Part shown: positions 37,547 to 51,100 of the stretch, in pieces
Position numbering within the stretch: position 1 is the stretch's first letter
How the letters are laid out: each line of letters opens with the position of its first letter
IMG/VR virus record: IMGVR_UViG_3300046542_000361
DNA from: a virus
Taxonomy: Duplodnaviria; Heunggongvirae; Uroviricota; Caudoviricetes
Reading direction: 5' to 3' (one strand)
Length of the DNA: 51,436 bases
Position numbers and translations under genes: made by a program
The notes under the pieces: model-generated
What the model was told of the DNA's origin: nothing
The model's input: the letters and a program-made list of their open reading frames with translations, nothing else
Database searches by the model: none

Positions 37547-38821
37547 TCACAGAGAGACGCCGAGGATCTGGATCTTGCGGACGGGATATTCGAACTCGGC
37601 GAAGTAGCCAAGCGCGTCGGCGGGGTGCTCGACGCCGGCCTTCTTGTCGACATCGCGGGTGCCGGCCTTGTAGATCGTCTGCTCCATGGCTTCGATCGTG
37701 TGCTTGCACTTGCGGTCGAACTTCATCCGGATCGTGCCCTCGGCATCCATCAGCAGCCGGTTGACGGCGTTGACGCGATCATCGACAGGCGGATGCTTGC
37801 GATGGAATTTGATCCGCTTGAAGCCAGCATCGCGCAGGATCTCGAGCGAGGATTCGCCGCGTGCGTGCGTGCGGTTGTTGCCGGCCGGGTCAGGATAGAT
37901 CGTGATGTTGTTGATATGCCGGTGATAGCGGCGCCCGAGCTCGTCGGCTGTCTCCTGGGTATTGGAGCCAAGCAGGATCGCTTCGTCGACCACCCAGATC
38001 TCGCCGTTTGCCTGCTCCTGCATGATGACCGAGCTCATCGGATCGATGTTGAAGTCCTGGCCGATGATGATCGGCAGCTTCGGATTGAACGGGTAGTCGC
38101 CGACATGGGTGCGCCGGTCGAACGGATAGTAGACACGACCCGACATCGACTCGAAGGACGCCTCGAATTCCTGGCGGAAGCTCTTCGGATCCATTTCACG
38201 CCGGGCCGTCTCGATTTCGGCGCGCGGAATGAACGGCGACATGATCGTCGGGAACTGCCAGCTCTTCCACGAATTGACGACGATCTTACCCTTGTCGTCG
38301 CGGTAGGTGTCGCCGCGCTGACCGAGCACATACATGTCGTAGAGCCAGTTGAAGGCCTTCGGCGTGCCGATGAAGATGACCTGGCCGCCCGTCGAGGCGA
38401 GCGTCGGACGCAGAACCGTCTTCCAGGTCTCTTCCTTCATATCCTGGGCTTCGTCGAGCACCAGGAAGTTGATCCCGACGCCGCGCAGCGTGTCGGGGTT
38501 ATCGGCGCCCTTCAGCTCGATGCGCGAGCCGTTGATCAGCCGCACGGTCATCCGGGTCTCGTTAATGCCGTTATAGACGATCAGCGCCTTCGGGATCGAG
38601 CGCTTCAGGTCGTCCCAAAGGATCTGCCGGGCCATCTGATAGGTCGGCGCCACATACCAGCACAGCTGGTTCTTGCGGCTGACGGCCGCCTTGATCAACG
38701 CGATCTTGGAGATCTGCGTCTTGCCCCAGCGTCGGCCGGCGACGATGACCTTGAAGCGGCGCTTGTCCTTCAGAACGATCTTCTGACCGCGGTGCGCCTT
38801 CAAAACAAGCGGAGCACTCAC
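37547..38821 (-). CDS. terL: Terminase large subunit
   Basis: AGRRWGKT, APTYQMA, LRGVG..FLVLDEA, IGTP, GQDFNID, DALGY. Confidence 0.95.
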   Translation of the reverse strand: MSAPLVLKAHRGQKIVLKDKRRFKVIVAGRRWGKTQISKIALIKAAVSRKNQLCWYVAPTYQMARQILWDDLKRSIPKALIVYNGINETRMTVRLINGSRIELKGADNPDTLRGVGINFLVLDEAQDMKEETWKTVLRPTLASTGGQVIFIGTPKAFNWLYDMYVLGQRGDTYRDDKGKIVVNSWKSWQFPTIMSPFIPRAEIETARREMDPKSFRQEFEASFESMSGRVYYPFDRRTHVGDYPFNPKLPIIIGQDFNIDPMSSVIMQEQANGEIWVVDEAILLGSNTQETADELGRRYHRHINNITIYPDPAGNNRTHARGESSLEILRDAGFKRIKFHRKHPPVDDRVNAVNRLLMDAEGTIRMKFDRKCKHTIEAMEQTIYKAGTRDVDKKAGVEHPADALGYFAEFEYPVRKIQILGVSL

Positions 38822-39504
38822 GCGGTAATCTCCACCGCGTTGATTTCGGCCAGGATCGCATCCGGGTCTTCACCCTCGTCGATCAGACCGTTCTCCTTGT
38901 GGTGCGAGAGAATGTCGTCGTCGGTCAGATCCTCGAAATGGATCTCCGGCAGATCATCCTCGTCGATCAGCTCATTGGCGCGCAGAACCTCGAGCCTGGT
39001 CAGGGTGTTTTCGACCAGGATCTTCTGGTAGCGCTGGACGGCTTTGAGGTCTTCGTCTGTCGCAGCGATCGTGCCGGAGGGAATGGTCCCTGCCCCGGCC
39101 GCCTTGATGGCGTCGGTGACGATCTTCTTTGCCAGCATGTCGGCTTGCTTCAGCGCCCGGTAGCCGGCAGTCCTGGTTTCCTCGATCCACTCGGCGCGCT
39201 TGTCGTTGTAGCGCTCCTGCTGCTGGGAGACCTGCTGAGCCGCTGCCTGCGTCGTCGCTGCCTTGACACCAGCTGCTGCCGCGGCGCTCACCTCTGACGC
39301 CCTGGTGCCGTATTCTACGCCATCCTGCTTGAAACGACGCCACAGCGCCTGCCGGGAGACGTCGTATTTCTCGCCGAGCTCCGACAGACGCATCTTGCCG
39401 AGCTCATACAGCTCCTTGGCCGCGGCATAGTCCGCGTCAGAGAGGCGCTTGGCTTTCGGATCGGCAGCGTCTTCGCTCGCCGGAGTAGTCGTTTCTTCAG
39501 TCAT
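38818..39504 (-). CDS. terS: Terminase small subunit
   Basis: N-terminal HTH (LSELGEKYDVSRQALWRRF); overlaps the terL start. Confidence 0.75.
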   Translation of the reverse strand: MTEETTTPASEDAADPKAKRLSDADYAAAKELYELGKMRLSELGEKYDVSRQALWRRFKQDGVEYGTRASEVSAAAAAGVKAATTQAAAQQVSQQQERYNDKRAEWIEETRTAGYRALKQADMLAKKIVTDAIKAAGAGTIPSGTIAATDEDLKAVQRYQKILVENTLTRLEVLRANELIDEDDLPEIHFEDLTDDDILSHHKENGLIDEGEDPDAILAEINAVEITA

Positions 39505-39515
39505 CACCGGAACCA

Positions 39516-39638: not shown

Positions 39639-39881
39639 TTACCGGAACCACCGGTAGAGAAGCATGTTTGGTTTAATCAGAACGGACATGCCGGCTCGCT
39701 CTTTCGTCACCCAGTCTCTTTCCTCGAAAAGCTTGATGATCTTCCGGAGTGAACCGTATGCGCAGCCGTAGGAGAGACTCTCGTGGATCTCGGTCACGGT
39801 CAGAAACCGGCCGGTATCGGCCGCCTTCAGAATGATACCGGCGATCTCGCGATGTTTCTCCCCTCTGCGGATCATCGCCAT
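39639..39881 (-). CDS. Winged-helix DNA-binding protein
   Basis: 80 aa, helix-turn-helix then beta wing (WVTKERAGMSVLIKP); TAATG-coupled to the GNAT gene. Confidence 0.65.
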   Translation of the reverse strand: MAMIRRGEKHREIAGIILKAADTGRFLTVTEIHESLSYGCAYGSLRKIIKLFEERDWVTKERAGMSVLIKPNMLLYRWFR

Positions 39882-40765
39882 TACGGCTTCCACTTCAAAG
39901 GTTCGGACGTGCCCTGGCAGTCGAAGGCCAGAAGCGGCAACCGGTCGGGAATGGAGCCCGGCTTGTCGACCGCTTTCCAGACGCCATACATCGGTGACGC
40001 CAGACTGACCTGCTGAATACCCTTGACCAGGTCGCGCACGCTCATCGCGGCGACCTTTGCCTGGGCCTTGTCACGGGCAGCACCGGTGTTTTCCATCGCC
40101 GAATTGCGCAGGTAGAAGTCCCGGCAGGCTTGCGCGAGCTTCTCCGGATCGGCCGAGGCCTCGATCTCCTGGATGACCGCCTCGAAGTCCTGGGGCGTCG
40201 CCTGAAAGTGCGAGCGGAAGAATTTCATGCCGACATCGTATTTGTTGGCGTTCTGGGGTGGCGCGAACTGAAAGCCCGCCTTCTGGCCGAAGACGTTGAA
40301 CTTCGACATCGACGACTGGATCTCGATCACCTTCAGCGGCTTTGCCAGATCCGCGGCTTCCATGCGGCTGACCAGGTTCATCATCCGGTAGCCGGCGCCG
40401 ATACCGCGATACATCGTGTCGACGACGAACCGCGAGATCACCCGGAAGTTCTTGTTGAGGTAGACGAAGCGATTGGTGTTGGTCATCTTCGTCTCCTGCC
40501 CGGTCGGCTTGAGTTTCGGAAAGACCAGGTGCCGCTCGCGCAGCATGCCCTTGGGCGCGCCGGTGACGAGGACGCCGATCGTGTCGGTGCCAATCACCAG
40601 GCGCCAGAACTTCGGCGCGAAGGGCAGTTTTTCAGCCTTGTAGTGGAGATCGTGCAGCAGCTCCCAGTCGGCAGCCGTGCCGCGTTCGACAAACATGTCG
40701 TCGGCCAGCGTGAAGCGTGCTCGAGGGTTCTCAAAACGCTGCACAATCAGCTCAGGTTCGCTCAC
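39881..40765 (-). CDS. GNAT-fold acetyltransferase-like protein
   Basis: ISRFVVDTMYRGIGAG acyl-CoA-binding motif A. Confidence 0.75.
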   Translation of the reverse strand: MSEPELIVQRFENPRARFTLADDMFVERGTAADWELLHDLHYKAEKLPFAPKFWRLVIGTDTIGVLVTGAPKGMLRERHLVFPKLKPTGQETKMTNTNRFVYLNKNFRVISRFVVDTMYRGIGAGYRMMNLVSRMEAADLAKPLKVIEIQSSMSKFNVFGQKAGFQFAPPQNANKYDVGMKFFRSHFQATPQDFEAVIQEIEASADPEKLAQACRDFYLRNSAMENTGAARDKAQAKVAAMSVRDLVKGIQQVSLASPMYGVWKAVDKPGSIPDRLPLLAFDCQGTSEPLKWKP

Positions 40766-40858
40766 AGCGCGCTCCGTCGGGTTTTGCGTATGCGGGTGCT
40801 CCCGCAGTGCAGGCGCTCACCAGCAGCGAAATAGCGAAAGCAAGAATTAGCGATTTCG

Positions 40859-41050
40859 TCACGCGTCCACTGCCTCAACCAGGCCAAGCTGCACCGCCTC
40901 TTCCATGTCGAAGCGCAGGCTGCCGGTCGTGTCCTTGTCGAAGCCGATGATCACCTCACCGTGTTCGGTGAGGTATCGCGAGACCACGGGACCGATACCG
41001 ACTTCGGTGCCGGCCGGGATGACGATATCCCTGGTGGTGCGATAGCCCAT
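40859..41050 (-). CDS. Hypothetical protein (63 aa)
   Basis: TGATG-coupled to the upstream gene. Confidence 0.6.
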   Translation of the reverse strand: MGYRTTRDIVIPAGTEVGIGPVVSRYLTEHGEVIIGFDKDTTGSLRFDMEEAVQLGLVEAVDA

Positions 41051-41352
41051 CAGACGAGCTCCCAGTCTTCGGCGCCCATGTCGGCCTGCGAGGCAACCCA
41101 GCCGACAACCGTCGAGCCGTCGGCAGCGCGCAGGCAGAAAGACGGCATCCGGATCGTGGTGCCTTCGTCGCCGTCGGTGAAGAGATCGACGCGAACGCTG
41201 TTGATCAGATCAACACCGTTGCGAATGCTGACCTCGGTCGACCGCGGTGCTGAGCCCGGCATCAGGAAGACGAACATCTTCTTGCCATTCCAGCCGGCGC
41301 GGGCCGCCCGCTTGCCATTTTTGACTGCCTCGAGTGCTTCGCCCAAGTTCAT
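41050..41352 (-). CDS. DUF2829 / Tad2-like protein
   Basis: ALEAVKNGKRAARAGWNGKKMFVFL...GWVASQADMGAEDW. Confidence 0.85.
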   Translation of the reverse strand: MNLGEALEAVKNGKRAARAGWNGKKMFVFLMPGSAPRSTEVSIRNGVDLINSVRVDLFTDGDEGTTIRMPSFCLRAADGSTVVGWVASQADMGAEDWELV

Positions 41353-41993
41353 GCTGCTTCTCCTGTTGTGATATCGACCTTTTCCTTGAAGCGCTTGTAG
41401 ACGGCGAGGTTGGGCGCCAGTTCCGCTTCGAGGTCGGTGTGGGTGGTTGCGACGATGAGGCTCTTGCCCCGTTGACGAGCGACCTTCTGGACGCTCATGG
41501 CGATGGCCTTGGCTGTGACGCGGTCGAGCACGGCGCCGAACTCGTCGGCGACCCAGACATCGGCGTCGGTCTCCATGACCTTTGCCAGCTTCAGGCGATA
41601 GCGCTGGCCGTCGGAAAGCTCCGAGGGCTTGCGGATATAGATCCAGGCGTCGGAGATCCCGGCGCAGGCCAAAAGATAGAGGGCGTCGTTGCTGGTCTTG
41701 CCGAGCTGGTCGATCACCGGACGGTCATCGAGCACGACCTCGTTCAGATCAGCGACCACCCTCCCCTGCTCGCGCATCTGGCGGGTAAGGTCGCGCAGCA
41801 GCAGCGACTTGCCGGAGCCGGACTGACCGTTGATGTAGATCACGTCATCGTCGCGGATATCGAGCTTGAGGTCGCGGTAGATCTCAAACCGTTTCTCGGC
41901 CAGTCCCAGGCCGAAGGACTCGGCGATCTCCAGCACGCGCGGGCTGCGCTCAACCGACGAGGTGAAGCCGCAATTGATGGTGTAGACGGTCAT
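41349..41993 (-). CDS. Stand-alone ABC-type ATPase
   Basis: GQSGSGKS, LSDGQ, VWVADEF, ATTH; no adjacent membrane subunit. Confidence 0.9.
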   Translation of the reverse strand: MTVYTINCGFTSSVERSPRVLEIAESFGLGLAEKRFEIYRDLKLDIRDDDVIYINGQSGSGKSLLLRDLTRQMREQGRVVADLNEVVLDDRPVIDQLGKTSNDALYLLACAGISDAWIYIRKPSELSDGQRYRLKLAKVMETDADVWVADEFGAVLDRVTAKAIAMSVQKVARQRGKSLIVATTHTDLEAELAPNLAVYKRFKEKVDITTGEAA

Positions 41994-42406
41994 TCGTATT
42001 CCCACTCTTCTTCAGGGACGGCTGTCGGGTCGAGACGCTCGCCACCGATCATCAGCGCCGGCGCGGTTGCGGCCGCCTGGTCGGCGAGCTCGAGCTTCAG
42101 CGTCTCCATGACGCCAACGAAGGCGTGCAGGTCGTTCGGCGGGATGAGACGATCATCGAGCAGGATCTCGGTCAGGAAGATCTTGTGCTTGGTGTCGCGG
42201 GAGAGCAGCACCAGGCCTTCGAGGTGCCCTTCCCGCGTCATCTTCAAAAGACCCTCGAGGATCTCGACCATGGCGTCGCGGTGTTCCATCACCGCGTCGG
42301 CCGCCTGTCTCTTGGCTTTGCGTGTCGCCGCGCGCTTCTGCTTGCGCTCTTCGGAGCGGGCGAGCGCAAAGGGCTTGCGGGTCTTCAGATCGATGACCTC
42401 GCTCAT
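41990..42406 (-). CDS. Hypothetical protein
   Basis: 138 aa, ATGA overlaps on both sides. Confidence 0.65.
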   Translation of the reverse strand: MSEVIDLKTRKPFALARSEERKQKRAATRKAKRQAADAVMEHRDAMVEILEGLLKMTREGHLEGLVLLSRDTKHKIFLTEILLDDRLIPPNDLHAFVGVMETLKLELADQAAATAPALMIGGERLDPTAVPEEEWEYE

Positions 42407-43065
42407 GCAGCTTGATCCGTTGCTTCCAGGACGTAGATCAGCGCCTCGACGCCCTTGCGGCCGGAGCGCTGCTCGACCCGCGACATGAGATCGCGGATCT
42501 TGCGGCTCTCGGCGATCGTGACGCGCTTGAAGCCCAGCGCATCGGCAACCGGTGCGGCGACATCGTCGACCTCTTTGGTCTTCTGCTCGTTCTCGGTCTT
42601 CTGCTTTTCGACCGCAGCGCCGATGTCGTCGACGAAGATCGTGTCGTCCATGTCGATCAGGTCAGCGGTCGCGAAGTCCAGCTCGTGCTCGGAATAGCCG
42701 AGCATCGTCAGATCGATACCCTCGAAGTCCGACAGCATCGCCAGTTCAGCCTGCTCGAGGCCGAGATCGTATTCGGTGGATGCGACGCGGTTGTCAGCCA
42801 GGCGCAGCGCGGCCGCCTCTTCCTTGGTCAGATCGTCGCGGATGATCACCGGCGCCTTCTCGAGGCCAAGCTTCAGGGCAGCAAGCCGTCGGCCGTGGCC
42901 GGCGATGATCACCAGATCCTTGTCAACGACGATCGGCGAGGTCCAGCCGTAGCGGCTGATGAGCGCCATCAGCTTCTCGACCTGGTCGTCGGAGTGCTTC
43001 TTGGCGTTGTTTTCGTATGGCACCAGGTCGGCAACAGCGACCAGCGTGACGGCCTTATTCGTCAT
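42403..43065 (-). CDS. ParB/Srx N-terminal-domain protein
   Basis: LVPYENNAKKH...GWTSPIVVD...IIAGHGRRLAA...RLADNR. Confidence 0.88.
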   Translation of the reverse strand: MTNKAVTLVAVADLVPYENNAKKHSDDQVEKLMALISRYGWTSPIVVDKDLVIIAGHGRRLAALKLGLEKAPVIIRDDLTKEEAAALRLADNRVASTEYDLGLEQAELAMLSDFEGIDLTMLGYSEHELDFATADLIDMDDTIFVDDIGAAVEKQKTENEQKTKEVDDVAAPVADALGFKRVTIAESRKIRDLMSRVEQRSGRKGVEALIYVLEATDQAA

Positions 43066-43237
43066 CGTGATATTCCCCGTAGAGTTCCATGAGTTCGTGG
43101 CGCGTCTTTTCACGCGAGCGGATCTTCTCCTCGTAGAACTCGCCGCTGTCGCACTCGCCGCAGATCGGGTTCACTCGGTTTTTCAGGAAGAAGACGCAGG
43201 ACTTGCAGTCGTCGAATTTCGGCCGGACGAAGGTCAT
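43055..43237 (-). CDS. Small zinc-finger protein
   Basis: CKSC-x11-CGEC; overlaps both neighbours. Confidence 0.6.
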   Translation of the reverse strand: MTFVRPKFDDCKSCVFFLKNRVNPICGECDSGEFYEEKIRSREKTRHELMELYGEYHDDE

Positions 43238-43980
43238 GCTGCGTCCTCGTCAAGCAGGTCATCGAGCTCATCTAGCTCGCTCTGGGCGGCCGCCTGGTTC
43301 TTGCCGGCAAGCAGCAGGTGAACCAGGGCGTCGCCGGCGTTGGTCAGCTCGTCGGAGGAGGTGAAGCCGTTGTCCTTCATCGTGCGCTCGATCAGCGCGG
43401 TGATGTCTTCGGCGTCGCGGTTGGAGACCTTGTAGCGGATGATCGTGTGGGTCTTCGGGGCTTTTGGCTGGACCGGCTCCTCACCACTGTCTTTTTCCGC
43501 TTCCTTTTCGAAGTTTTCTTCAAGACCCAGCGAATCCAGATCTATTTCAGATGTTGTGAACAGATCGGTGAAATCATGCTCGGTGTAGGGAAGGAAGTCC
43601 TTCAGTTGCTCTGCGTTGCCCATTCCCTTGATGAGGTCGGCAAAGGCGATCTGATCGTCCATGCCGTATCGCGAGTTGTCGGCGATGCCGATCTCCTTGG
43701 CCTTCAGATCGTCGATCGGACCAAGGTTGACGACCGGGATCTTTTCGAGACCCATCTTCGCCGCGATCTGGGCGCGGTGCTCGCCGCCCAGGATTTCGTA
43801 TGCGAACGGATCGCTAAATCCCGAAATAGCGATTTCGCGAACGACGGCCGGGCGAAAGAAGCCCAAGCGCCGGATGGACTCCTCCAGCTTCGCCTCGTTC
43901 TCGGGCGTCACGATGTTCGTGTTCCAGGGGTTGGGTCGCAGAGAGCTCGGATCGAGCTCGATCATCTTCGGATATGTCAT
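43234..43980 (-). CDS. ParB/Srx N-terminal-domain protein
   Basis: LRPNPWNTN...SIRRLGFFRPAVV...ILGGEHR...ADN; start MTYPKMI. Confidence 0.88.
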   Translation of the reverse strand: MTYPKMIELDPSSLRPNPWNTNIVTPENEAKLEESIRRLGFFRPAVVREIAISGFSDPFAYEILGGEHRAQIAAKMGLEKIPVVNLGPIDDLKAKEIGIADNSRYGMDDQIAFADLIKGMGNAEQLKDFLPYTEHDFTDLFTTSEIDLDSLGLEENFEKEAEKDSGEEPVQPKAPKTHTIIRYKVSNRDAEDITALIERTMKDNGFTSSDELTNAGDALVHLLLAGKNQAAAQSELDELDDLLDEDAA

Positions 43981-44007
43981 CGGCGCCTTGTGCAATAGTG
44001 GGTGGCA

Positions 44008-44027
44008 GTCAGTAAATATTGATTTAT
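44008..44027. promoter_or_regulatory. 20-bp palindromic motif A
   Basis: GTCAGTAAATATTGATTTAT, between divergent genes. Confidence 0.7.
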
Positions 44028-44067
44028 CATATCCGCCAAACAAGGCAACAGGCAAACGAGAAATTTC

Positions 44068-45669
44068 ATGACTTTGATTAAACTGGCCTACAACGCCGTC
44101 ACCGCCCAGCTGCTCGACAACCCGCCCGAGACGGTCACCAACACCGTTTCGGACCTGCTCTCCTATATGGTCGACGGCGCCGAGCAGACTTTTGCGTTCA
44201 ACCAGGGCACCTGGGATGGCAAGTCGTCCTTCTACGAATACAAGACCAACTCCTTCCCGGCCGGCTTTGCCTTCATGGTTCACAAGGAGCTGATGCGGCT
44301 TGGCTACAAGGTGCAGATCTTCCGGAAGAAGGCCGCTGAGCCGCTCGGCCCCGAAAACCCGATCGTCGATGATTTCGGCAACGAGGATCCACGCTACGCT
44401 CACCAGCCGGAGAGCCTGCGCCGCGTCGAGAAGTTCGGCCGCGGCATCATCCAGGTCGCAACGGGCGGTGGCAAGTCGAAGATCGCCAAGATGATCATGC
44501 TGCGCTACCGGCGCCCTACCCTCTTCCTGACGACGCGCAAGGTGCTGCTCTACCAAATGAAGGAGCAGCTCGACGCGCTCGATCTCAACACCGGCGTCAT
44601 CGGCGACGGCAAGGAGAAGATGGTCAAGGGCGTCAACCTCGCCATGGTGCAGACGCTCGTTGAAGCGCTCGAGGAGCCGAACCTGCAGAAGGAGATCATC
44701 GCCGTCACCAAGTCACAGCATCGTTCGAAGAAGAAGGATTCGAACATGCCGAAGGAGCAGGTGCGCGAACTTGCCCAGGCCCGCTTTGACGAAAAGACGA
44801 AAAAGCGAAATCGCTATTTGAAGTTCCTCGAGCTGATCGACGTGGTCATCGGTGAGGAAGCCCATGAGGCAGGCGGCAACAGCTATTACGAGATCCTCAA
44901 GCACTGCAAGAACGCCACGATCCGCGTTGCCCTCACCGCAACGCCGTTCATGCGCTCCAGCGCTGAAGACAACATGCGCCTGATGGCCGCCTTCGGTTCG
45001 GTGCTGATCCGCATCACCGAGGAGCAGCTGATCGAGTCCGGTGTGCTTGCCAAGCCGATCTTCAAATACGTGACCTCGGAGCCGCACAAGCTGCTGTTTC
45101 GCTCGTCGCCCTGGGCGCGCGCCTACCAATTCGGCTATATCGAGAACACCTTCATGCACAAGGACATCGTGCGTGACGCTCTGATGGCAAAGCGCTACGG
45201 GTTGCCGGTGCTGACGCTGATCCAGCGCATGGACCACGGGGAGATCCTGTTCAAGAAGTTCACCCATGTCGGGCTGCGCACGGTCTTCCTGCGCGGCGAG
45301 AACGATCAGAAGGAACGTCAGGCGGCTCTGTCTGCGCTCGAGCGCGGCGAAATCGATGCGATCATCGGCTCGACCATCGTCGACGTCGGCGTCGATGTGC
45401 CGGGTATCGGCCTGGTGCAGCTTGCCGGTGGTGGCAAGGCTGAAGTGGCGTTGCGTCAGCGGATCGGCCGCGGTCTGCGCGCCAAGAAAAATATGCCGAA
45501 CTATGCCTTCATTGCCGACTATTCATGTGCCAACAACATTGCGCTGTCCGAGCACACGGCCGAGCGCAAGAACATCGTCAAATCCACACCCGGCTTCCGG
45601 GAGAACATCTTGCCGGCGAGCGAAGACTTTCCCTGGCAGATCTTCGCAGCGCAGAGGAAAGCAGCATGA
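44068..45669 (+). CDS. SF2 DNA helicase
   Basis: ATGGGKS, EEAH, TATP, GVDVP, QRIGRGLR. Confidence 0.9.
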   Translation: MTLIKLAYNAVTAQLLDNPPETVTNTVSDLLSYMVDGAEQTFAFNQGTWDGKSSFYEYKTNSFPAGFAFMVHKELMRLGYKVQIFRKKAAEPLGPENPIVDDFGNEDPRYAHQPESLRRVEKFGRGIIQVATGGGKSKIAKMIMLRYRRPTLFLTTRKVLLYQMKEQLDALDLNTGVIGDGKEKMVKGVNLAMVQTLVEALEEPNLQKEIIAVTKSQHRSKKKDSNMPKEQVRELAQARFDEKTKKRNRYLKFLELIDVVIGEEAHEAGGNSYYEILKHCKNATIRVALTATPFMRSSAEDNMRLMAAFGSVLIRITEEQLIESGVLAKPIFKYVTSEPHKLLFRSSPWARAYQFGYIENTFMHKDIVRDALMAKRYGLPVLTLIQRMDHGEILFKKFTHVGLRTVFLRGENDQKERQAALSALERGEIDAIIGSTIVDVGVDVPGIGLVQLAGGGKAEVALRQRIGRGLRAKKNMPNYAFIADYSCANNIALSEHTAERKNIVKSTPGFRENILPASEDFPWQIFAAQRKAA

Positions 45670-45848
45670 CCCACAAATCTCAGGAACGTCTCGTCGATCC
45701 GGTTCACTTCTTCAACTCCTGCGGCCTCTCGGCGATGAGCGAGGTCTTCTATCTCGAGGCAATCGAGAAGCTGCAGGCCGACAATCAGCGCCTGACCCGG
45801 CTCGTCGAACGCGCCAAGAATCGCGGCCTTCTCGATCTGGAGAATTAG
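45666..45848 (+). CDS. Hypothetical protein (60 aa)
   Basis: ATGA overlap with the helicase stop. Confidence 0.6.
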   Translation: MTHKSQERLVDPVHFFNSCGLSAMSEVFYLEAIEKLQADNQRLTRLVERAKNRGLLDLEN

Positions 45849-45862
45849 CGAAATCGCTATTT
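45843..45862. promoter_or_regulatory. Motif B inverted pair (WWWTAGCGA)
   Basis: AATTAGCGA-AA-TCGCTATTT; further copies are listed in the findings. Confidence 0.6.
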
Positions 45863-45890
45863 CGCGCCTTCCCTAAAACGCTCCTTTGCA

Positions 45891-45910
45891 GTAAGTAAAT
45901 ATTGATTGAC
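45891..45910. promoter_or_regulatory. 20-bp palindromic motif A
   Basis: GTAAGTAAATATTGATTGAC. Confidence 0.7.
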
Positions 45911-45925
45911 TGCAAAGGAGCAAAA

Positions 45926-46492
45926 GTGACCAATCCAACCGCTTATCCCAAACTGATCGCCCTGTGTGGCAACCCGACCTCGGGCAAATCGACGGCCGCT
46001 GAAATCATCAATGACTGCTACGGGCACAAGCTCGCCGATGACGGCCTCCCTCTCCGCAAAATCGCCATCGATTATCTCGGCCTGACGCCCGAGCAGGTGT
46101 TCACCCAGGCCGGCAAGCTCGAATCCGTCACCATCAACGGCCGCAAGTGGCAGGTGCGTGAGGTTCTGGGCGAGATCGGCAACGCCTTCGAAGAGAAGTT
46201 CGGTGGCGATATCATCCCGATCATGAGCCACAATGCCCAGCCGAAGGACCAGTTCTCGGTGTTCGGCTCCGTCCGGCGCGAGCAGGGCCGTTACTGGAAG
46301 CAACAGGGCGCTCTCATTCTCGAGATCATCAATCCCCTCGCCGGTCCGTCGAAATTTGAATTCGACGTCTACAATCCGGTCTACGCCGATCATCAGATCC
46401 AGAACGACGGCCTGGCGCGCGGTCTGTCGCCGCAAGAGGCTCGCCTCGACCTGATGGACAAGCTGATCAAAGTGATTGGGCCGGTGTTTTGA
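45926..46492 (+). CDS. Deoxynucleoside monophosphate kinase-like P-loop protein
   Basis: LIALCGNPTSGKST, REVLGEIG, VRREQ; AAGGAG RBS before GTG. Confidence 0.7.
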   Translation: MTNPTAYPKLIALCGNPTSGKSTAAEIINDCYGHKLADDGLPLRKIAIDYLGLTPEQVFTQAGKLESVTINGRKWQVREVLGEIGNAFEEKFGGDIIPIMSHNAQPKDQFSVFGSVRREQGRYWKQQGALILEIINPLAGPSKFEFDVYNPVYADHQIQNDGLARGLSPQEARLDLMDKLIKVIGPVF

Positions 46493-46845
46493 TCGACGTC
46501 TGGTATGGAAGTCAACGGATGGGCGCGCTTGAGCGGAGCGCGCCTTTGAACAACCTCCTGGTCTTCAGGGAAATGCCGGCAGGCTCGTTTCTCTCTGCCG
46601 ACATTCGCGAAACCGTCTTTTCGCTAATTCGCCACACCGAAACCGTCGAAAAGATCGCTCTGATGCGATCAAACATGTCGATTTTCGAATATGTCGATCG
46701 GATGCTCGGTCTGAACATCGAGGAGCTCGTCGTGACCGAGTGTCCGCACATCGACGCCGTTCGGGTCTCCTGGCTGAAGGTCGTCGCTGACGATATCGAC
46801 CAATACGAATTCCTCTTCGACCAGCCCGACTTCGTTCCCGTTTGA
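46489..46845 (+). CDS. Hypothetical protein
   Basis: 118 aa, TTGA overlap with the kinase stop. Confidence 0.5.
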   Translation: MIDVWYGSQRMGALERSAPLNNLLVFREMPAGSFLSADIRETVFSLIRHTETVEKIALMRSNMSIFEYVDRMLGLNIEELVVTECPHIDAVRVSWLKVVADDIDQYEFLFDQPDFVPV

Positions 46846-47054
46846 TCTTGAAGAGCGCCGGCAGTCGAACTATGTAATTCCCCGGCGCGGCCCTAGAACT
46901 CTCTGCCAGCTCCGATCTCCCAAGATTCCGGAGCAGCCGTGTTCGTTGTTGACGCAAATGGGCCGCGTCACCCCTCCCTTCCCAATCCCGTAAAAATTCG
47001 TTAACCATTGGGCGCTAAAGATTTAGCGAATTAACGACATAGGGATTTCGCGAA

Positions 47055-47699
47055 ATGAGCACCATCATCGCATGTCTGTCCCAGAAAGGCGGCGTCGGCA
47101 AGTCGACGATAGCCCGTCTCCTGGCGCGCACCTTCGCTTCTGCCGGCTGGTCGGTGAAGATCTGCGACTTCAACGTCAATCAGCTCACCTCGACCGACTG
47201 GGTGGCAATACGGATGGTCGCCAACATCGAGCCGGCGATCGAAGCCCAGCCGATGAACTCGGTCAAGAAGCTCAAGGCTGAACGTCACGACCTCCTGGTC
47301 GTCGACGGCGCCCCGGACAGTCAGCAGACCTCGCTCGATGCAGCCCAGCTTGCCGATGTGGTGATCATACCGACCGGCGCGACCCGCGATGACCTGAAGC
47401 CGCAGCTTGCCTTTGCGCACGAGCTTTCGAACAAGGGCGTGTCGCGCAAGAAGATGCTGTTCGTCCTCAACAAGACGACCGAGAGCGACCTGGCCTCCCG
47501 CGAAGCCACCCAGTTCATCAAGGAGCAGGGCTTTGAGGTCGCCGAAACCGACATCGTCTCGAAGACCGGCTATCAGATGGCCCAGAACCGCGGCTTCTCG
47601 ATCGCTGAAACGCTTTACCCGTCTCTGAATGAGCGCGCCGACCGGCTCGCGGTCGAGATCGTCGATAAACTCAACACCCTACAGGTAGCCGCAGCATGA
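47055..47699 (+). CDS. parA: Partition ATPase ParA
   Basis: SQKGGVGKST deviant Walker A, VVDGAP, ADVVIIP; short, no N-terminal HTH (type Ib). Confidence 0.92.
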   Translation: MSTIIACLSQKGGVGKSTIARLLARTFASAGWSVKICDFNVNQLTSTDWVAIRMVANIEPAIEAQPMNSVKKLKAERHDLLVVDGAPDSQQTSLDAAQLADVVIIPTGATRDDLKPQLAFAHELSNKGVSRKKMLFVLNKTTESDLASREATQFIKEQGFEVAETDIVSKTGYQMAQNRGFSIAETLYPSLNERADRLAVEIVDKLNTLQVAAA

Positions 47700-47962
47700 A
47701 GAGCCCAGCCCCAGCGACGAAGGCCAATATCAAGCCAAGACAGCAGTCCGGCGCGATGAAATACCTCGGCAGCCTCACCGAAGAGCCGGTCAAGCCGGCC
47801 GACAACATGAAGAAGAAGGACGCGGTGCTGCGCGACCTCAACTTCAAGGTCGATCCGGACTTTCACACCAGGTTCAAGATGACCGCGACCGCGGCCGGGC
47901 TGTCGATGAAGGAGCTGCTCGAGCAGTGCTTCGATGCCTGGACGACCTTGCGCCGTGGCTGA
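47696..47962 (+). CDS. ParG-like ribbon-helix-helix partition protein
   Basis: Flexible N-terminus then LNFKVDPDFHTRFKMTATAAGLSMKELL; ATGA-coupled to parA. Confidence 0.75.
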   Translation: MKSPAPATKANIKPRQQSGAMKYLGSLTEEPVKPADNMKKKDAVLRDLNFKVDPDFHTRFKMTATAAGLSMKELLEQCFDAWTTLRRG

Positions 47963-47967
47963 CACAG

Positions 47968-48000
47968 AAAAGGGCGGTCGAAACCGCCCTTTCTTTATTT
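47968..48000. terminator. Bidirectional intrinsic terminator
   Basis: AAAAGGGCGGT-CGAA-ACCGCCCTTTCTTT between convergent genes. Confidence 0.88.
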
Positions 48001-48004
48001 CACG

Positions 48005-48021
48005 ATTTAGCGAAATCGCTA
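48005..48021. promoter_or_regulatory. Motif B inverted pair downstream of the par operon
   Basis: ATTTAGCGA-AA-TCGCTA. Confidence 0.6.
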
Positions 48022-48240
48022 CCGGCGCAGTTCGAACTTGAAACCGTGCGTCTCGCGCGGATCGAGGTAGCTACCGAGAAGCGACAGCACGATCACCAGA
48101 AAGAGCACGATCAGGAACGGCACGCCGATCATGAACAGGCCGGCGCCGATCATCAGCGCGAGAACGACGAGCAGAGCGACGACAGCCAGACGGATGATAT
48201 CGGCAAAGAACTTGCGCAGGCTGAACTTGAATTTTTCCAT
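48019..48240 (-). CDS. Small two-TM membrane protein
   Basis: Long hydrophobic stretch flanked by basic residues. Confidence 0.65.
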   Translation of the reverse strand: MEKFKFSLRKFFADIIRLAVVALLVVLALMIGAGLFMIGVPFLIVLFLVIVLSLLGSYLDPRETHGFKFELRR

Positions 48241-48250
48241 GGATAGATCC

Positions 48251-48706
48251 TCAGAGGTTGGAAGTGGCTTCGTTGAGACTGAGCGTCAGGACAGGCCCGC
48301 CGCACCAGAAATCACAGGCCTTGGCCGCCTCGACGGCTTCGACCGCGTTGGCACCCATCTGGATCGCGCCGTGGGCGTATTTCTTGCCAGAGCCGATCGA
48401 CCAGGTGTTGCCGAAGAGCGGGCCTGAAGGCGTATAGCCGTCGCTGTAGAGGAAGACCTCGCCGGCTGGCGTGACGTGGATCGCGTCGAAGGCGGGCTCG
48501 CCCGGCATGTCAGCCTTTCGATCGGCGCCAGCAGCCAGCCAGTCGCGAAACGCTTCCGGCATGCCGATCTGGTTCGAGGTGATGCCGACAAGCCCACCGT
48601 CGGGTAGACGGTGGATCTTGCGCTTGTTGCCGACCGGGTGTTGATCTCCACCATAGGCACGACTGTCAGCGGCCATCACGCCCTCGTGATAGACGACGAC
48701 GCTCAT
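48251..48706 (-). CDS. Ntn-hydrolase (HslV/proteasome-beta-like) protein
   Basis: MSVVVY...MAADSR...KI...SIGSG...D..CGG; ATGA overlap. Confidence 0.75.
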   Translation of the reverse strand: MSVVVYHEGVMAADSRAYGGDQHPVGNKRKIHRLPDGGLVGITSNQIGMPEAFRDWLAAGADRKADMPGEPAFDAIHVTPAGEVFLYSDGYTPSGPLFGNTWSIGSGKKYAHGAIQMGANAVEAVEAAKACDFWCGGPVLTLSLNEATSNL

Positions 48707-49032
48707 GCGGCGTCCTCGGGCAGCTTGATGCGCTTGGGCTGGAAGACAGCCCGATTGAGCCACATGAAGGCCTCCTGGATGCTCCGGCGTGCGAGCTGGA
48801 CCATTGCCTGGTCGATCTCCTGGCTATCGCGGCTACGAACATGGCGATCGACCTGGCGCAGCACGCGTTCCTCGAGCTCCTTGTTCTCGTTGACCAGCGC
48901 AACCTTCTCGTCGCTCTGTGTGGTGTAGCCAGCGACGGGCAGGGGAGTGTGAACCGCCGCGGTTACACGACCGGCGAGGGGAATACCTTCAAGCGGGAAG
49001 CCGAAGGGCAGGGAGGCGTCTTTGTCGGACAT
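48703..49032 (-). CDS. Acb2-like anti-CBASS protein
   Basis: GYTTQSDEKVALVNENKE...LARRSIQEAFMWLNRAVFQP matches the Acb2 pattern GY-x9-N-x2-K...Q-x3-M-x3-RA-x2-QP. Confidence 0.75.
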   Translation of the reverse strand: MSDKDASLPFGFPLEGIPLAGRVTAAVHTPLPVAGYTTQSDEKVALVNENKELEERVLRQVDRHVRSRDSQEIDQAMVQLARRSIQEAFMWLNRAVFQPKRIKLPEDAA

Positions 49033-49069
49033 AGAGATTTCCTGATTTAGCGAAAGGGCGAATTAGCGA

Positions 49070-49951
49070 TTATTCGTCGTCGATGCGGTTGCCGATCGGG
49101 CCAAAGCGGGGCTTCCAGAGCAGCGTCGTGCCGGCAGGCACCATCGAGCTGAGATCGACGCTCTTGTCGGCCCAGATACCGCCCCAGACAGCCTTGGCGT
49201 GCTCTTCAGCAGCGACGGCAGCACAGGCTTCGCAACCACAGTCCTCAGCCGGCCCCTTGGTGATCTCGAACGGCCCCTCGCTTGCGACGCTGAGCGGATT
49301 GATCAGCTCGACGTCATCGTCATCCTCGTCGACCTCATCGACGATCGGCAGCAGCTCGTAGGAGCGCCAGGACGGATGCACATCGATGAAGCTGCCCACG
49401 GTCGTCTCCAGGCTCAGCTCGCCATCGACGTTGAGAATGGAGCAGACATCGAGGAACATCGAGTTCGACCCGTCGGCAAAGCGCACGAAGGCATTGGCCG
49501 GCTCGTCGAGCACCAGAACCAGATCATCGGCGATCGCCTTGATCTCCTCGTCGCGCTCCTGATGAGCGACCTGACGTCCAGCTTCGAAAGCCTGGTCGAT
49601 CATCGTCGAAACCCTGGCTTCGTGATCCGACATCGGAATCACATTCTGCTCGGTGTGATCGACGCCGATCAACTTGCCGGTGCCGAACGCCTTGCGCACG
49701 CCGTCGACGAAGGAGACGTAAGCGAAGGTCTCGAGCAGATAGGTGAGGGTGGTGCCTGCCTCGTCGCTCAGCTTGAAAGGCTGGCCGATCGCGAAGGCCT
49801 TCTCACCCTCGATGAGGAAGCGCGCCTGCAAAGGCGCGGTGACGAAGTGTGTCAGCTGACCGGTGCCGCCTGCGTAAAGGACATCGCCGCGCTGGGGAAA
49901 ATTGATCTTCATGGAATGTTGGATCCTTGGACGTTGGAATTGCCAGGACAT
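49070..49951 (-). CDS. Hypothetical protein
   Basis: 293 aa (alternative start 49912); acidic patch and CGCEAC motif. Confidence 0.65.
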   Translation of the reverse strand: MSWQFQRPRIQHSMKINFPQRGDVLYAGGTGQLTHFVTAPLQARFLIEGEKAFAIGQPFKLSDEAGTTLTYLLETFAYVSFVDGVRKAFGTGKLIGVDHTEQNVIPMSDHEARVSTMIDQAFEAGRQVAHQERDEEIKAIADDLVLVLDEPANAFVRFADGSNSMFLDVCSILNVDGELSLETTVGSFIDVHPSWRSYELLPIVDEVDEDDDDVELINPLSVASEGPFEITKGPAEDCGCEACAAVAAEEHAKAVWGGIWADKSVDLSSMVPAGTTLLWKPRFGPIGNRIDDE

Positions 49952-49967
49952 TATCCGAGCGCTCGCA

Positions 49968-49987
49968 GTCAGTCAATATTGATTGAT
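49968..49987. promoter_or_regulatory. 20-bp palindromic motif A
   Basis: GTCAGTCAATATTGATTGAT. Confidence 0.7.
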
Positions 49988-49999
49988 CGAAAAGAGGAT

Positions 50000-50056
50000 G
50001 GGTAGCTTGGGCAAGGGGAATCCGGGCTGCGGGGCAGGGGAACCGGGGCGCCGGGG
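50000..50056 (+). other. Cluster of eight G-runs (G-quadruplex-forming motif)
   Basis: G3-4 runs at 50000, 50009, 50015, 50024, 50031, 50037, 50045, 50053; loops of 2-6 nt. Confidence 0.7.
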
Positions 50057-50453
50057 ATTTGGTTGACGGATCACTACCCAGGGAGAGCTGTCCGTCCCGG
50101 TGAGGCACTAGGACAGGTAGTCGATGGTCGATTTTCGCCGGGCAGCAGTGGGCATCATGCTCGCACACGTCGAAAATCTCTAAGACTTCGATCACTGACG
50201 CGCGCAACGCTTTGACAGTGACACATAGCAGCTCGAGGGATCGATCGTCGCGCTTCTGTGACACATGACACTGCTCACACGTCTATGCGTGTCAGTGACG
50301 CTCTACGAGTCAAAGCGCGCGTATCATCACATAGCAATAATCATATGAAAATAAATTCGCGATTTAGCGATTTAGCTATTGCATGACACTGCGAACTAGT
50401 GTCTAAAGAGCATGTCAACAACGACAACTAGACAACACAAGAGAGAAACGAAC

Positions 50454-51026
50454 ATGACACACACTGTCGCAGTTAACGCTTACGCACTGTCTCTGTCTGC
50501 ACGCTATGACACTGAACTCGCAGCAAAGAAGTCTGCTAATTCGCTCAACTTCATATCGAAGTGCGCGCTTGTCGTATCGCAGAAGAGCGTTGCTGACATG
50601 CTCGCTGCATGCGAAGTCAAGACAGACTTTGCGCAAGATAGCGTTCAAGCTAACAGCGCGTTCTGCATGAAAGCGCTTGAGAATTGCGCTCACATGCTCG
50701 AGTTTGCAGCAAATACGCGTAACGTCGACAAGCTGAAAAGCAACGTCGAAGAAGTGCTGCGCACGCTCGTCAACTTCAAAAAGAACAATGAGCAATTCAG
50801 CGCAAGCGACATTGAAATCGCGCTTGATAAAAACATCAAAGTCGCGAAAGAGCGTGTCGCGCTTTACTATCGTCGCAAAGACGAATTCTCTTCTGCGAAG
50901 CGACACGCTTCTATGAACATGCGCGCACTTGTTGCACTCAACTTGCTCAAAGCTGCATCGAAAGACAAATACACTGTCAACGATAACGCGATCATGCAAG
51001 CGATCGAAGCGCGCTTCGCAGCGTAG
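50454..51026 (+). CDS. Hypothetical protein lacking Gly, Pro and Trp; possible C-terminal winged helix
   Basis: 190 aa from MTHTVAV (ORF open from 50412); lies inside the GG/CC-free tract. Confidence 0.75.
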   Translation: MTHTVAVNAYALSLSARYDTELAAKKSANSLNFISKCALVVSQKSVADMLAACEVKTDFAQDSVQANSAFCMKALENCAHMLEFAANTRNVDKLKSNVEEVLRTLVNFKKNNEQFSASDIEIALDKNIKVAKERVALYYRRKDEFSSAKRHASMNMRALVALNLLKAASKDKYTVNDNAIMQAIEARFAA

Positions 51027-51029
51027 ACA

Positions 51030-51049
51030 GTAAATCAAGATTGATTGCT
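51030..51049. promoter_or_regulatory. 20-bp palindromic motif A (degenerate)
   Basis: GTAAATCAAGATTGATTGCT. Confidence 0.6.
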
Positions 51050-51070
51050 AGCGCGTCATACGCGCTAGCA
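51046..51070. repeat. Perfect 11-bp hairpin
   Basis: TGCTAGCGCGT-CAT-ACGCGCTAGCA, no U tract. Confidence 0.7.
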
Positions 51071-51100
51071 CGTCGCAACAAATCACACGAAAGCAAAACG

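Follow-up and report, generated by a model that had tools for sequence, protein, structure and literature searches.

What might a phage gain from an operon that places two ParB-like proteins, an ABC-type ATPase and a GNAT-fold acyltransferase directly ahead of its terminase genes? This question is raised by a 51,436-nucleotide stretch of viral DNA (Caudoviricetes; IMG/VR record IMGVR_UViG_3300046542_000361), hereafter the window, whose proteins are about 96% identical to those of Rhizobium phage RHEph10. An initial annotation had proposed a new, packaging-coupled DNA modification system, in which the GNAT acylates a base with the help of the ATPase and the ParB-like proteins, and a tract devoid of GG and CC may reveal the target sequence. 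The sequence of the window was found in metagenome contigs only.

All genes named in that annotation were located on the minus strand (Table 1). The operon runs from 43980, the position of the ParB-A start codon (ATG), to 39639 and reads into the terS-like, TerL and portal-position genes. Its junctions are mostly overlaps of 1–16 nt; gaps occur only ahead of the GNAT gene (93 nt) and the terS-like gene (131 nt). The gene list was incomplete, since it left out the 138-aa protein, the Tad2-like (DUF2829) protein and the 63-aa protein. Among 80 related IMG/VR loci, 68 are untruncated, with enough upstream DNA, and serve as the denominator for gene-presence counts; the order ParB-A, ParB-B, ABC, GNAT is kept in 68/68 of them, so the arrangement is not a matter of chance. 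The core comprises these four genes and that of a small probable winged-helix protein, and the zinc finger, the 138-aa protein, the 63-aa protein and Tad2 are lineage-specific optional inserts. The divergently transcribed helicase gene is a conserved neighbor (60 of the 68 loci).

Table 1. Coordinates of the module genes, the GNAT-gene leader and flanking genes in the window.
Feature	Position	Strand	Matches and remarks
SF2 helicase, UvsW/ResIII type, divergently transcribed	44068..45669	+	ResIII 6.8e-16, Helicase_C, UvsW_N
ParB-A, ParB/Srx N-domain, 248 aa, pI 4.4 (acidic)	43234..43980	-	Pfam ParB_N 34.7 bits; phrog_723 4.8e-53; first operon gene
CxxC-x11-CxxC zinc-finger-like protein, 60 aa	43055..43237	-	Cys pattern in translation; no Pfam or PHROG match; optional insert
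ParB-B, ParB/Srx N-domain, 220 aa, pI 4.6 (acidic)	42403..43065	-	phrog_930 3e-88; GHGRR arginine patch
138-aa protein	41990..42406	-	No match in family searches; optional insert, in 32/68 related loci
Soluble ABC-type ATPase, 218 aa	41349..42005	-	ABC_tran 1.8e-12; phrog_293; Walker A, LSDGQ signature, Walker B
Tad2-like (DUF2829) protein, 100 aa	41050..41352	-	PF11195 82.2 bits; anti-Thoeris-type sponge family
63-aa protein	40859..41050	-	No Pfam or PHROG family match; optional insert, in 11/68 loci
93-nt gap before GNAT gene	40766..40858	-	Two AWWTAGCGAWW copies (40829, 40845)
GNAT-fold acyltransferase, 294 aa, pI 9.5 (basic)	39881..40765	-	phrog_886 3e-126; AF2 pLDDT 89.6
Probable small basic wHTH protein, 84 aa, pI 9.7	39639..39893	-	Penicillinase_R E 0.0087, below cut-off
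terS-like DNA-binding protein (context, outside module)	38818..39507	-	phrog_867 1.2e-57; phrog_1206 terminase small subunit 0.005
Terminase large subunit, TerL (context)	37547..38821	-	Terminase_6N 39.1 bits, Terminase_3 36.1 bits

Judging by sequence comparison, the ABC ATPase and the GNAT are the N- and C-terminal halves of one fused ABC–GNAT enzyme family. The full-length ATPase aligns with the N-terminal half of a fused protein (P0051; 38% identity, E 4e-45). The GNAT has 148 related library representatives, many of them proteins of 450–900 aa, and all 10 of the 10 long relatives scanned have ABC_tran at the N-terminus and the GNAT region behind it, i.e., the domain order repeats the gene order of the window. 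Because they match two halves of a fused family, the two proteins are best regarded as one functional unit, which bears out the proposed cooperation of the GNAT with the ATPase. Likewise upheld was the description of the latter as an ABC protein without a membrane partner: it matches ABC_tran, and no permease gene was found nearby. The GNAT itself scores weakly against Pfam (E 0.018); its identity is nevertheless secured by the AF2 model, which matches GNAT folds at Z 11–12, and by the conserved motif A (R-x-V-V-D-x-x-Y-R-G-x-G-x-A/G).

The top-ranked structural match of the model is Mom of phage Mu (VIA; Z 12.2, rmsd 4.2), aligned over 172 residues compared with about 130–140 for other GNATs. 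Both proteins add a helical insertion to the GNAT fold, which in the model comprises about 80 residues ahead of the last strands; in Mom, the only proven DNA-modifying GNAT, the insertion is essential (PMC13219725). Sequence similarity between the window GNAT and Mom was not found (hhalign probability 0.5%), and Mom, which uses glycyl-tRNA, needs neither an ATPase nor a ParB, whereas the window GNAT comes with genes of both types. Foldseek matches of the model are headed by NAT10/TmcA and Mom, the only GNATs known to modify nucleic acids.

The claim of novelty has to be withdrawn. DNA base acylation by an ABC ATPase-coupled GNAT is an existing prediction (Iyer, Zhang, Burroughs and Aravind, NAR 2013), restated in section 3.4.7 of a later review (Viruses 2021, PMC7824862), where Tenacibaculum phage pT24 is the example given. 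The window ATPase and GNAT belong to the same family, align with its two halves and are related to proteins bearing the database label ‘MK0520 / ABC-type ATPase fused to a predicted acetyltransferase’ (COG2401); pT24 was among the homologs retrieved. Unlike the predicted system, the window encodes its enzyme in two separate genes, with cargo inserted in between; two ParB-like genes come before this pair and the wHTH gene after it. The associations of the family with ParB, terminase, formyltransferase and PanD/CoA-transferase genes were documented by our own searches.

Phages from at least five bacterial phyla carry the fused family, and the module adjoins the terminase in five lineages, i.e., that of the window, NHagos, 315.4, LE4 and a group of metagenomic prophages, which have the fused gene right behind TerL in 33 of 72 loci. 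In Burkholderia phage phiE255, Pseudomonas phage Komp_PAO1_1 and a Porphyromonas phage, a small ORF and the fused enzyme gene follow the tail-fibre or tail genes; this is the location of com–mom in Mu, where mom is a late gene, and in Mu-like phages the fused relatives lie behind a small ORF that overlaps them. A Formyl_trans_N gene comes directly after the enzyme gene in NHagos and in these three phages (34.6–76.5 bits), and in Rhodococcus phage Jace the enzyme gene is followed by genes for an aspartate decarboxylase (2e-33) and a CoA-transferase-III-like protein; in 315.4, the gene behind the enzyme encodes an ASCH domain. Such donor-making and tailoring enzymes next to the relatives support a chemical modification pathway. 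The window module itself has no enzyme of this kind, so its chemistry is the least constrained.

Two ParB/Srx N-domain proteins had been recognized in the operon, and both assignments hold. ParB-A exceeds the Pfam ParB_N cut-off of 26.3 bits; ParB-B, at 26.0 bits, lies slightly below it and is identified by phrog_930 and its AF2 model, which resembles the CTP-binding N-domains of ParB/Noc proteins (Foldseek 4e-7). Both are strongly acidic, with a central DNA-binding domain that is vestigial at most. Outside its own lineage, the nearest homolog of ParB-A is gp91 of Arthrobacter phage Mufasa8, encoded within a DpdA/7-deazaguanine DNA-modification cluster, and ParB-B resembles the ParB portion of ParB–methyltransferase fusions (phrog_498, PADLOC MTase_II). 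Two ParB genes are present in 68/68 complete loci of the SSU5/RHEph10 type. Their suggested role as partners gains from recurrence in unrelated phages: a ParB_N gene immediately precedes and overlaps the enzyme gene in Gordonia phage NHagos, Rhodococcus phage Jace, Arthrobacter phage EastWest, Streptococcus pyogenes 315.4 and Leptospira LE4. The enzyme occurs with no detectable ParB in phiE255, Komp_PAO1_1, the Porphyromonas phage, Nonlabens P12024S and the TerL-linked prophage group.

A phage ParB is known to activate a thymine dioxygenase (5mYOX with its cognate ParB) on double-stranded DNA (PNAS 2026, PMC13229309). It shares with the window proteins an N-terminal nucleotide-binding domain, a C-terminal domain and the lack of a clear DNA-binding domain, and its gene lies beside that of the DNA-modifying enzyme, often near the terminase. 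The partner in the window differs from those in ParB–dioxygenase and ParB–methyltransferase systems, being a GNAT with an ABC ATPase, and there are two ParB paralogs; by this analogy, the window enzyme may be ParB-dependent. Complex prediction lends weak support to the binding of ParB-B to the ABC–GNAT complex. The score was 0.42 (runs of 0.42, 0.37 and 0.49, sharing at least 85% of contacts; partner pLDDT at least 75) against 0.00 for the best of three controls. In the calibration set, which differed from this prediction in its alignments and in not using three chains, 58 of 80 solved complexes passed the mark, as did 2 of 110 mismatched pairs, and the range up to 0.60 held only 7 of the 80 solved complexes but both passing mismatches.

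The CxxC-x11-CxxC pattern of the zinc finger is present as described, but its casting as a counterpart of Mu Com fails: a homolog occurs in 40 of the 68 loci and is absent from SSU5, Cyrano, X66 and the Stenotrophomonas phage, and the gene lies about 2.3 kb, or five genes, upstream of the GNAT gene. A Com-type RNA target is lacking too, as no unusual hairpin was found in the GNAT-gene leader (fold z +0.72). The small ORFs of phiE255 and nickie are not zinc fingers. The leader carries a pair of AWWTAGCGAWW elements, a motif found 12 times in the window versus 0.24 expected, and is possibly an operator or promoter. Homologs of the 84-aa protein were detected by phmmer in 46 of the 68 loci; the gene is present as described, and its product is probably a winged helix, as the sub-threshold Penicillinase_R match hints. 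Tad2 was considered as a module partner and rejected as a movable insert, found in 24 of the 68 loci at three different module positions.

The GG/CC-free tract is real and conserved in RHEph10-like phages, and only there. Its link to the module is not supported, since SSU5 carries the module while its longest GG/CC-free tract is 154 bp.

With moderate confidence, the module most likely places an acyl mark on a base of phage DNA. Of the original proposal, the enzyme unit, the ParB linkage and the tailoring neighbors (in relatives) stood up to scrutiny, and DNA as the substrate is what we infer from them. The charge of the GNAT and wHTH proteins is consistent with such a substrate; against it, the Mom match is tied with GNATs acting on proteins and small molecules (Z 11–12), and the site ahead of the terminase commonly holds unrelated cargo genes as well. 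Acylation of RNA or tRNA, e.g., N4-acetylation of cytidine as by TmcA/NAT10, tuning translation or evading tRNA-targeting defenses, is an unlikely alternative, although TmcA/NAT10 dominate the Foldseek lists (best E 2.7e-5 in PDB and 7.4e-5 in Swiss-Prot models, with low TM-scores of 0.28–0.35 by query) and likewise couple an ATPase with a GNAT acting on a nucleic-acid base. These cellular housekeeping enzymes join a helicase-type ATPase and DUF1726 in one chain, whereas the module has an ABC-type ATPase and no DUF1726 domain according to Pfam. The ASCH fold is linked to RNA binding and N4-acetylcytidine, and an ASCH domain gene follows the enzyme gene in 315.4; tRNA genes lie about 2 kb from the module in nickie. 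Yet many carriers encode no tRNA, the recurrent ParB-like partners are otherwise tied to DNA enzymes, and linkage to the terminase or the mom position fits DNA. Somewhat less probable is acetylation of a packaging or virion protein or of a host protein (RNA polymerase, a defense protein), as by the Rac GNAT of phiKMV-like phages: most GNATs of similar Z-score are N-terminal or lysine acetyltransferases (NatA, RimI, GCN5), and phage GNATs acting on host proteins are known (PMC7824862), but the ParB partners, the ABC ATPase, the formyltransferase, the aspartate decarboxylase with CoA-transferase and the com–mom-like position would all be left unexplained.

Still more doubtful is a non-catalytic role in packaging or plasmid maintenance, with the ParB-like proteins and the ABC ATPase clamping or condensing DNA at the pac region and the GNAT fold serving for binding only. 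The phage group that carries the module consists of phage-plasmids, DNA handling is known for ABC ATPases of the SMC/Rad50 kind, and linkage of the module with the terS-like and TerL genes is tight. However, motif A is conserved in split and fused forms alike, as are the invariant polar residues D33, H41, Y42, R78, R112 and E148, which would be expected of an active enzyme; relatives are accompanied by tailoring enzymes; other phages have the same enzyme well away from the terminase, within replication modules or behind tail genes; and a separate putative ParA-type partition cassette was read from the window sequence at about 47.0–48.0 kb in the initial annotation. The least probable reading is a small-molecule pathway making or modifying an amine metabolite (e.g., a polyamine or a beta-alanyl conjugate) used during infection. 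It would accommodate the PanD and CoA-transferase of Jace and the formyltransferases, which are ordinary small-molecule enzymes, the polyamine acetyltransferases among the fold matches and the inclusion of kinases such as SerK in the ParB/Srx fold; however, in most carriers, as in the window, the module lacks any further metabolic gene, and the basic GNAT, the wHTH protein and the ParB partners better suit a nucleic-acid substrate.

Under the preferred reading of DNA base acylation, the basic GNAT with its helical insertion would bind DNA and move an acyl group from acetyl-CoA, another acyl-CoA or, as for Mom, an aminoacyl donor to the exocyclic amine of a base. The ABC ATPase dimer may spend ATP on clamping or distorting the duplex so that the base is presented, a counterpart to the action of the TmcA/NAT10 helicase module on RNA. 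The two ParB-like proteins, each with a nucleotide-binding N-domain and a small C-terminal domain, would activate the enzyme on double-stranded DNA in the manner of the cognate ParB of the thymine dioxygenase, and the wHTH protein might target or regulate it. Overall, the window module is a further case of a widespread, experimentally uncharacterized system predicted in the literature. It may represent an ATP-dependent, ParB-assisted acyltransferase that acts on replicated phage DNA shortly ahead of packaging; the acylated virion DNA would then enter the next host already protected from nucleases.

The operon proposed in the initial annotation is present on the minus strand with all the genes named there, and these overlap by 1–16 nt at every junction except for the two gaps listed in the table below. 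The window itself can be assigned to the Rhizobium phage RHEph10 group by 93–96% protein identity; this group comprises 115-kb siphophages, kin of the SSU5-type phage-plasmids. The stretch was found only in Logan contigs from rhizosphere metagenomes, with no RNA dataset among those listed. The conservation survey covered 80 of the 393 IMG/VR loci found for the lineage, and 68 of them had enough flanking DNA. In all 68, the genes for two ParB/Srx N-domain proteins (ParB-A and ParB-B), the soluble ABC ATPase, and the GNAT-fold protein occur in the same order; the surveyed loci harbor the terS-like and TerL genes downstream of this core and the helicase gene opposite to it. The same core was encountered in the cultured relatives, e.g., SSU5, Cyrano, Klebsiella phage-plasmids, nickie, Stenotrophomonas phages, and Xanthomonas JGB6.

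Features of the module, its surroundings, and related loci of other phages (window positions unless a locus handle, L, is given)
Feature	Position	Strand	Size	Remarks
Whole operon	43980–39639	minus
Gene 1, ParB-A		minus	248 aa	core
Gene 2, CxxC-x11-CxxC protein (zinc finger)		minus	60 aa	optional, 40/68 loci
Gene 3, ParB-B		minus	220 aa	core
Gene 4, 138-aa protein		minus	138 aa	optional, 32/68 loci
Gene 5, ABC ATPase		minus	218 aa	core
Gene 6, Tad2/DUF2829 protein		minus	100 aa	optional, 24/68 loci
Gene 7, 63-aa protein		minus	63 aa	optional, 11/68 loci
Gap between genes 7 and 8			93 nt
Gene 8, GNAT-fold protein		minus	294 aa	core
Gene 9, basic protein		minus	84 aa	probably winged helix
Gap downstream of module			131 nt	followed by terS-like gene, TerL, gene in portal position
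UvsW/ResIII helicase	from 44068			divergent to operon
AWWTAGCGAWW, 12 copies	40829–50372			all within 40.8–50.4 kb
AWWTAGCGAWW, further pairs	45843/45852 and 49045/49061
GG/CC-free tract	50238–51305		1,067 bp	~50% G+C
phiE255 cassette	L175:3795–5688			small ORF, fused ABC-GNAT, formyltransferase
Komp_PAO1_1 cassette	L186:2855–4730			same set
Porphyromonas phage cassette	L187:2876–4604			same set
NHagos cassette	L171:1–2473			same set
Jace row	L170:2938–5703			ParB, fused ABC-GNAT, aspartate decarboxylase, CoA-transferase-III-like
Prophage 315.4	L174:3492–5496			ASCH domain gene after enzyme
Mufasa8	L173:3154–7589			ParB-like gene among DNA-modification genes

The zinc finger, 138-aa, Tad2, and 63-aa genes are optional. 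Judging by its profile match (PF11195, 82.2 bits vs. the cut-off of 25, profile positions 1–73 of 73), the 100-aa insert is a member of the Tad2 (DUF2829) sponge family; since it occupies three different slots, it is movable anti-defence cargo and not a partner of the core. PADLOC and NCBIfam returned nothing specific for the GNAT, zinc finger, 138-aa, 63-aa, and winged-helix proteins, and the protein atlas returned unnamed clusters only for the 138-aa protein.

Comparison with their homologs shows ATPase and GNAT to be the two halves of a single enzyme. The ATPase (ABC_tran, 1.8e-12) displays the Walker A (GQSGSGKS), signature (LSDGQ), and Walker B (VWVADEF) motifs, and neither a permease gene nor another membrane partner for it is found in the operon. 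The GNAT is barely detected by Pfam (E 0.018), and a PDB sequence search with it gave nothing useful; its AF2 model (pLDDT 89.6) has GNAT matches with Z 11–12. This basic protein (pI 9.5) possesses a conserved motif A (R-G-x-G-x-A/G) as well as several invariant polar positions, and its model features an approximately 80-residue helical insertion (176–255) preceding the last strands. An exhaustive search with the GNAT retrieved only 148 representatives, many of them 450–900 aa long, and in 10/10 of those scanned the GNAT region was preceded by an N-terminal ABC domain. The full-length window ATPase aligns to the N-half of one such fused representative, P0051 (38% identity, E 4e-45), the fused profile carries the same motifs as the split proteins in both halves, and the fusions from actinophages match this profile at 99.7–99.9% probability. 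The gene order in the operon (ABC, GNAT) is also the domain order of the fusions.

Of the fused representatives P0082 and P0088, one contains an intein that has a LAGLIDADG domain, and the other ends in a TFIIB repeat at its C-terminus; features of this sort are typically archaeal. The neighborhoods of the long fused representatives P0041, P0054, P0095, and P0088 were phage-like or too short and added no information. Fusion of ParB to the long (677–897 aa) family members was considered and rejected, as no ParB domain is seen in their N-terminal extensions. Among the Swiss-Prot models matched by the GNAT model, Druantia type I DruA (P0DW34) ranked second but had the top TM-score by query (0.44), covering GNAT residues 21–266; hence, an extended fold related to that of the GNAT may be present in DruA.

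A system of this kind has already been predicted. The relevant passage of the 2021 review by Iyer et al. (PMC7824862), citing their own NAR 2013 article, predicts an ABC-coupled GNAT acylation of DNA bases, exemplified by the Tenacibaculum phage pT24. The window matches the predicted system in its soluble ABC ATPase, which has all motifs and lacks a membrane partner, and in its GNAT fold with the acyl-CoA-binding motif A; the two parts are fused there, whereas here they are split and homologous to the fused form. The window ATPase matches pT24 (tblastn E 4e-12), and the fused protein gp86 of Rhodococcus phage Jace matches the same pT24 genes (E 4e-48, 89% coverage). By these sequence features, the module is a member of the kind already predicted, and the “new system” of the initial annotation loses its novelty, since the same idea is found in that passage and its example is among the homologs retrieved. 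The literature search yielded no paper on “COG2401” (the database label of the system) or “ABC-type ATPase fused”, and none joining SSU5 with ParB-like and terminase genes.

Structural comparison of the GNAT placed NAT10/TmcA and Mu Mom among its best matches. In VIA, Mom ranked first at Z 12.2 with 172 aligned residues, in a tie with ordinary GNATs, and a sequence-level comparison (hhalign of the GNAT alignment A1 with Mom) gave a probability of 0.5% over 12 aligned columns. Mom, a GNAT whose helical insertion is essential, moves glycine from charged tRNA onto adenine in dsDNA (PMC13219725). The insertion of the Mom family is HTH-like and located near the C-terminus; in the window GNAT, the modeled helices precede the last strands. 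In TmcA/NAT10, DUF1726 and a helicase-type ATPase are fused to the GNAT, whereas the ATPase here is of the ABC_tran type, and the proteins of the module gave no DUF1726 or helicase match.

ParB-A and ParB-B both harbor the ParB/Srx N-domain (ParB_N matches) and are strongly acidic (pI 4.4 and 4.6, respectively); beyond this domain, only several helices and a C-terminal domain of small size are left. The ParB-B model, with only three short helices after the N-domain, has Foldseek matches to ParB and Noc in their CTP- and CDP-bound forms (4e-7, alignments of ~135 columns), and its GHGRR arginine patch is invariant or nearly so. The nucleotide-binding N-terminal domain and the arginine patch are thus shared with the partition ParB, a CTP-dependent clamp, but the adjacent ParA of partition systems is absent: the operon contains no ParA-type gene, and its ATPase, an ABC-type one, has its homologs in the enzyme fusions. 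ParB-B resembles the ParB portion of ParB-methyltransferase fusions. The closest outside homolog of ParB-A comes from Arthrobacter phage Mufasa8, where its gene is flanked by one for a DpdA-like transglycosylase and by the 7-deazaguanine synthesis genes (FolE/QueC/QueD/QueE); this locus is another case of a ParB paired with a DNA-modification pathway. Activation of a cognate thymine dioxygenase, specific to dsDNA, is shown for a phage ParB whose architecture is reduced in the same way, and ParB and terminase genes often neighbor such dioxygenases (2026, PMC13229309). In a three-chain complex prediction (ParB-B vs. ABC and GNAT), with a mark reached by 58/80 solved complexes and 2/110 mismatches, the score was 0.42, within the range (0.60 or less) where predictions are wrong more often than right unless the pairing is already likely, and the best control scored 0.00. 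The runs shared at least 85% of the contacts, and the partner pLDDT was at least 75; the prediction lends weak support to a contact of ParB-B with the enzyme.

Cultured phages of Actinobacteria, Firmicutes, Bacteroidota, Spirochaetes, and Proteobacteria account for 82 records of the enzyme, fused or split. In Gordonia NHagos, Rhodococcus Jace, Arthrobacter EastWest, S. pyogenes 315.4, and Leptospira LE4, the gene immediately 5′ of the enzyme gene, overlapping with it, is a ParB_N gene; the set adjoins the terminase in NHagos, 315.4, and LE4. Of 72 loci from a metagenomic prophage group, 33 have the fused gene in last place after TerL. Carriers without any detectable ParB include the Burkholderia phage phiE255 (BcepMu-like), Pseudomonas Komp_PAO1_1, a Porphyromonas phage, Nonlabens P12024S, and the TerL-linked group. 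In the first three of these, a small ORF overlapping the fused enzyme gene follows the tail-fibre or tail genes, i.e., the place occupied by com-mom in Mu.

The neighbors of the enzyme gene hint at its chemistry. A formyltransferase gene is situated directly 3′ of it in NHagos, phiE255, Komp_PAO1_1, and the Porphyromonas phage (34.6–76.5 bits; three phyla), and the NHagos cassette sits between the ParB and terminase genes. In Jace, the genes after the enzyme encode an aspartate decarboxylase (2e-33) and a CoA-transferase-III-like protein, which could plausibly supply a beta-alanyl donor. Together with the ASCH domain gene of the S. pyogenes prophage, these neighbors suggest a transfer-then-tailor pathway for an acyl or aminoacyl group; the window version lacks a helper enzyme, so a host metabolite would serve. 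In prophage 315.4 as well as in further phages of the streptococcal, lactococcal, and Oenococcus kind, tblastn matched the fused enzyme in two pieces; the halves are in different frames, representing a split, a frameshift, or decay. The GNAT part of these is annotated merely as an 89-aa ORF.

The zinc finger was initially considered an analog of Com, the zinc-finger translational activator whose gene overlaps the enzyme gene in Mu. This analogy was abandoned: the zinc finger gene is not so placed in the window but lies five genes upstream of the GNAT gene, it is retained only in part of the relatives, and, compared with shuffled versions, the 131 nt surrounding the GNAT start show no stronger folding. 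The small ORFs preceding the enzyme gene of phiE255 and nickie encode no zinc finger either. At the same time, two copies of AWWTAGCGAWW, 16 bp apart, are present within the 93-nt gap preceding the GNAT gene, and the 12 copies in the window compare with 0.24 expected. This element looks more like a candidate protein-binding site or promoter element than a Com-type one, and is probably recognised by a phage regulator.

The desert of GG/CC dinucleotides, suggested earlier to reveal the target sequence of the modification, is real and conserved in the RHEph10 group. The tract extends over 1,150 bp in RHph_N1_15 and is nearly retained in RHEph10 (549 + 424 bp); since it is kept at only about 80% nucleotide identity, it is under selection. 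According to blastn, this region is confined to the seven RHEph10-like phages. The desert and the module do not co-occur across the range of the latter: in SSU5, a carrier of the module, the longest GG/CC-free tract was 154 bp (100 of its 103 kb scanned). As a general link, the exempt-region idea was rejected on the basis of the blastn search and the SSU5 scan.

Overall, the best explanation of the module is a DNA acyltransferase that depends on ATP, is assisted by ParB, and works prior to packaging, a reading to which we would give roughly even chances; to this extent, the interpretation in the initial annotation is partly supported, stripped of the Com analogy, the desert, and the novelty. 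Acylation of RNA or tRNA, acylation of a protein, and participation in a small-molecule pathway are the rival roles for the enzyme. On indirect evidence, DNA seems to be the likeliest substrate, because the ParB relatives partner DNA modifiers, the GNAT matches Mom, NAT10, and TmcA, and the complex prediction weakly points to ParB-B as a partner. The module could also have a non-catalytic role in DNA handling, but the tailoring and donor genes adjoining the enzyme in other phages count against a purely structural role in packaging. Within the DNA acyltransferase reading, a more specific version is tentative and falls somewhat short of even chances: the module would put a new N-acyl or N-aminoacyl mark on DNA bases, the second GNAT-type mark after momylation, with access to the duplex via ATP hydrolysis by the ABC part and the ParB-like activators, its kin adding N-formyl or using a beta-alanyl donor.

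Direct testing is possible, since there are cultured carriers (RHEph10, SSU5, nickie, Jace, NHagos, and phiE255). The design of experiments is eased by the formyltransferase and PanD/CoA-transferase partners, which hint at the masses to seek, by the cassettes in the mom position, and by the DpdA link of the ParB-A relatives. The database labels “ABC transporter” and “partition protein” are misleading for these genes. If the prediction is true, thousands of phages and phage-plasmids bear an unrecognised DNA modification, including SSU5/pHCM2-type enterobacterial elements, streptococcal prophages, and Mu-like phages. The enzyme would then represent a new class, an ATP- and ParB-driven DNA acyltransferase of interest for labelling DNA, and the mark would have consequences for host range, sequencing, and the evasion of restriction.
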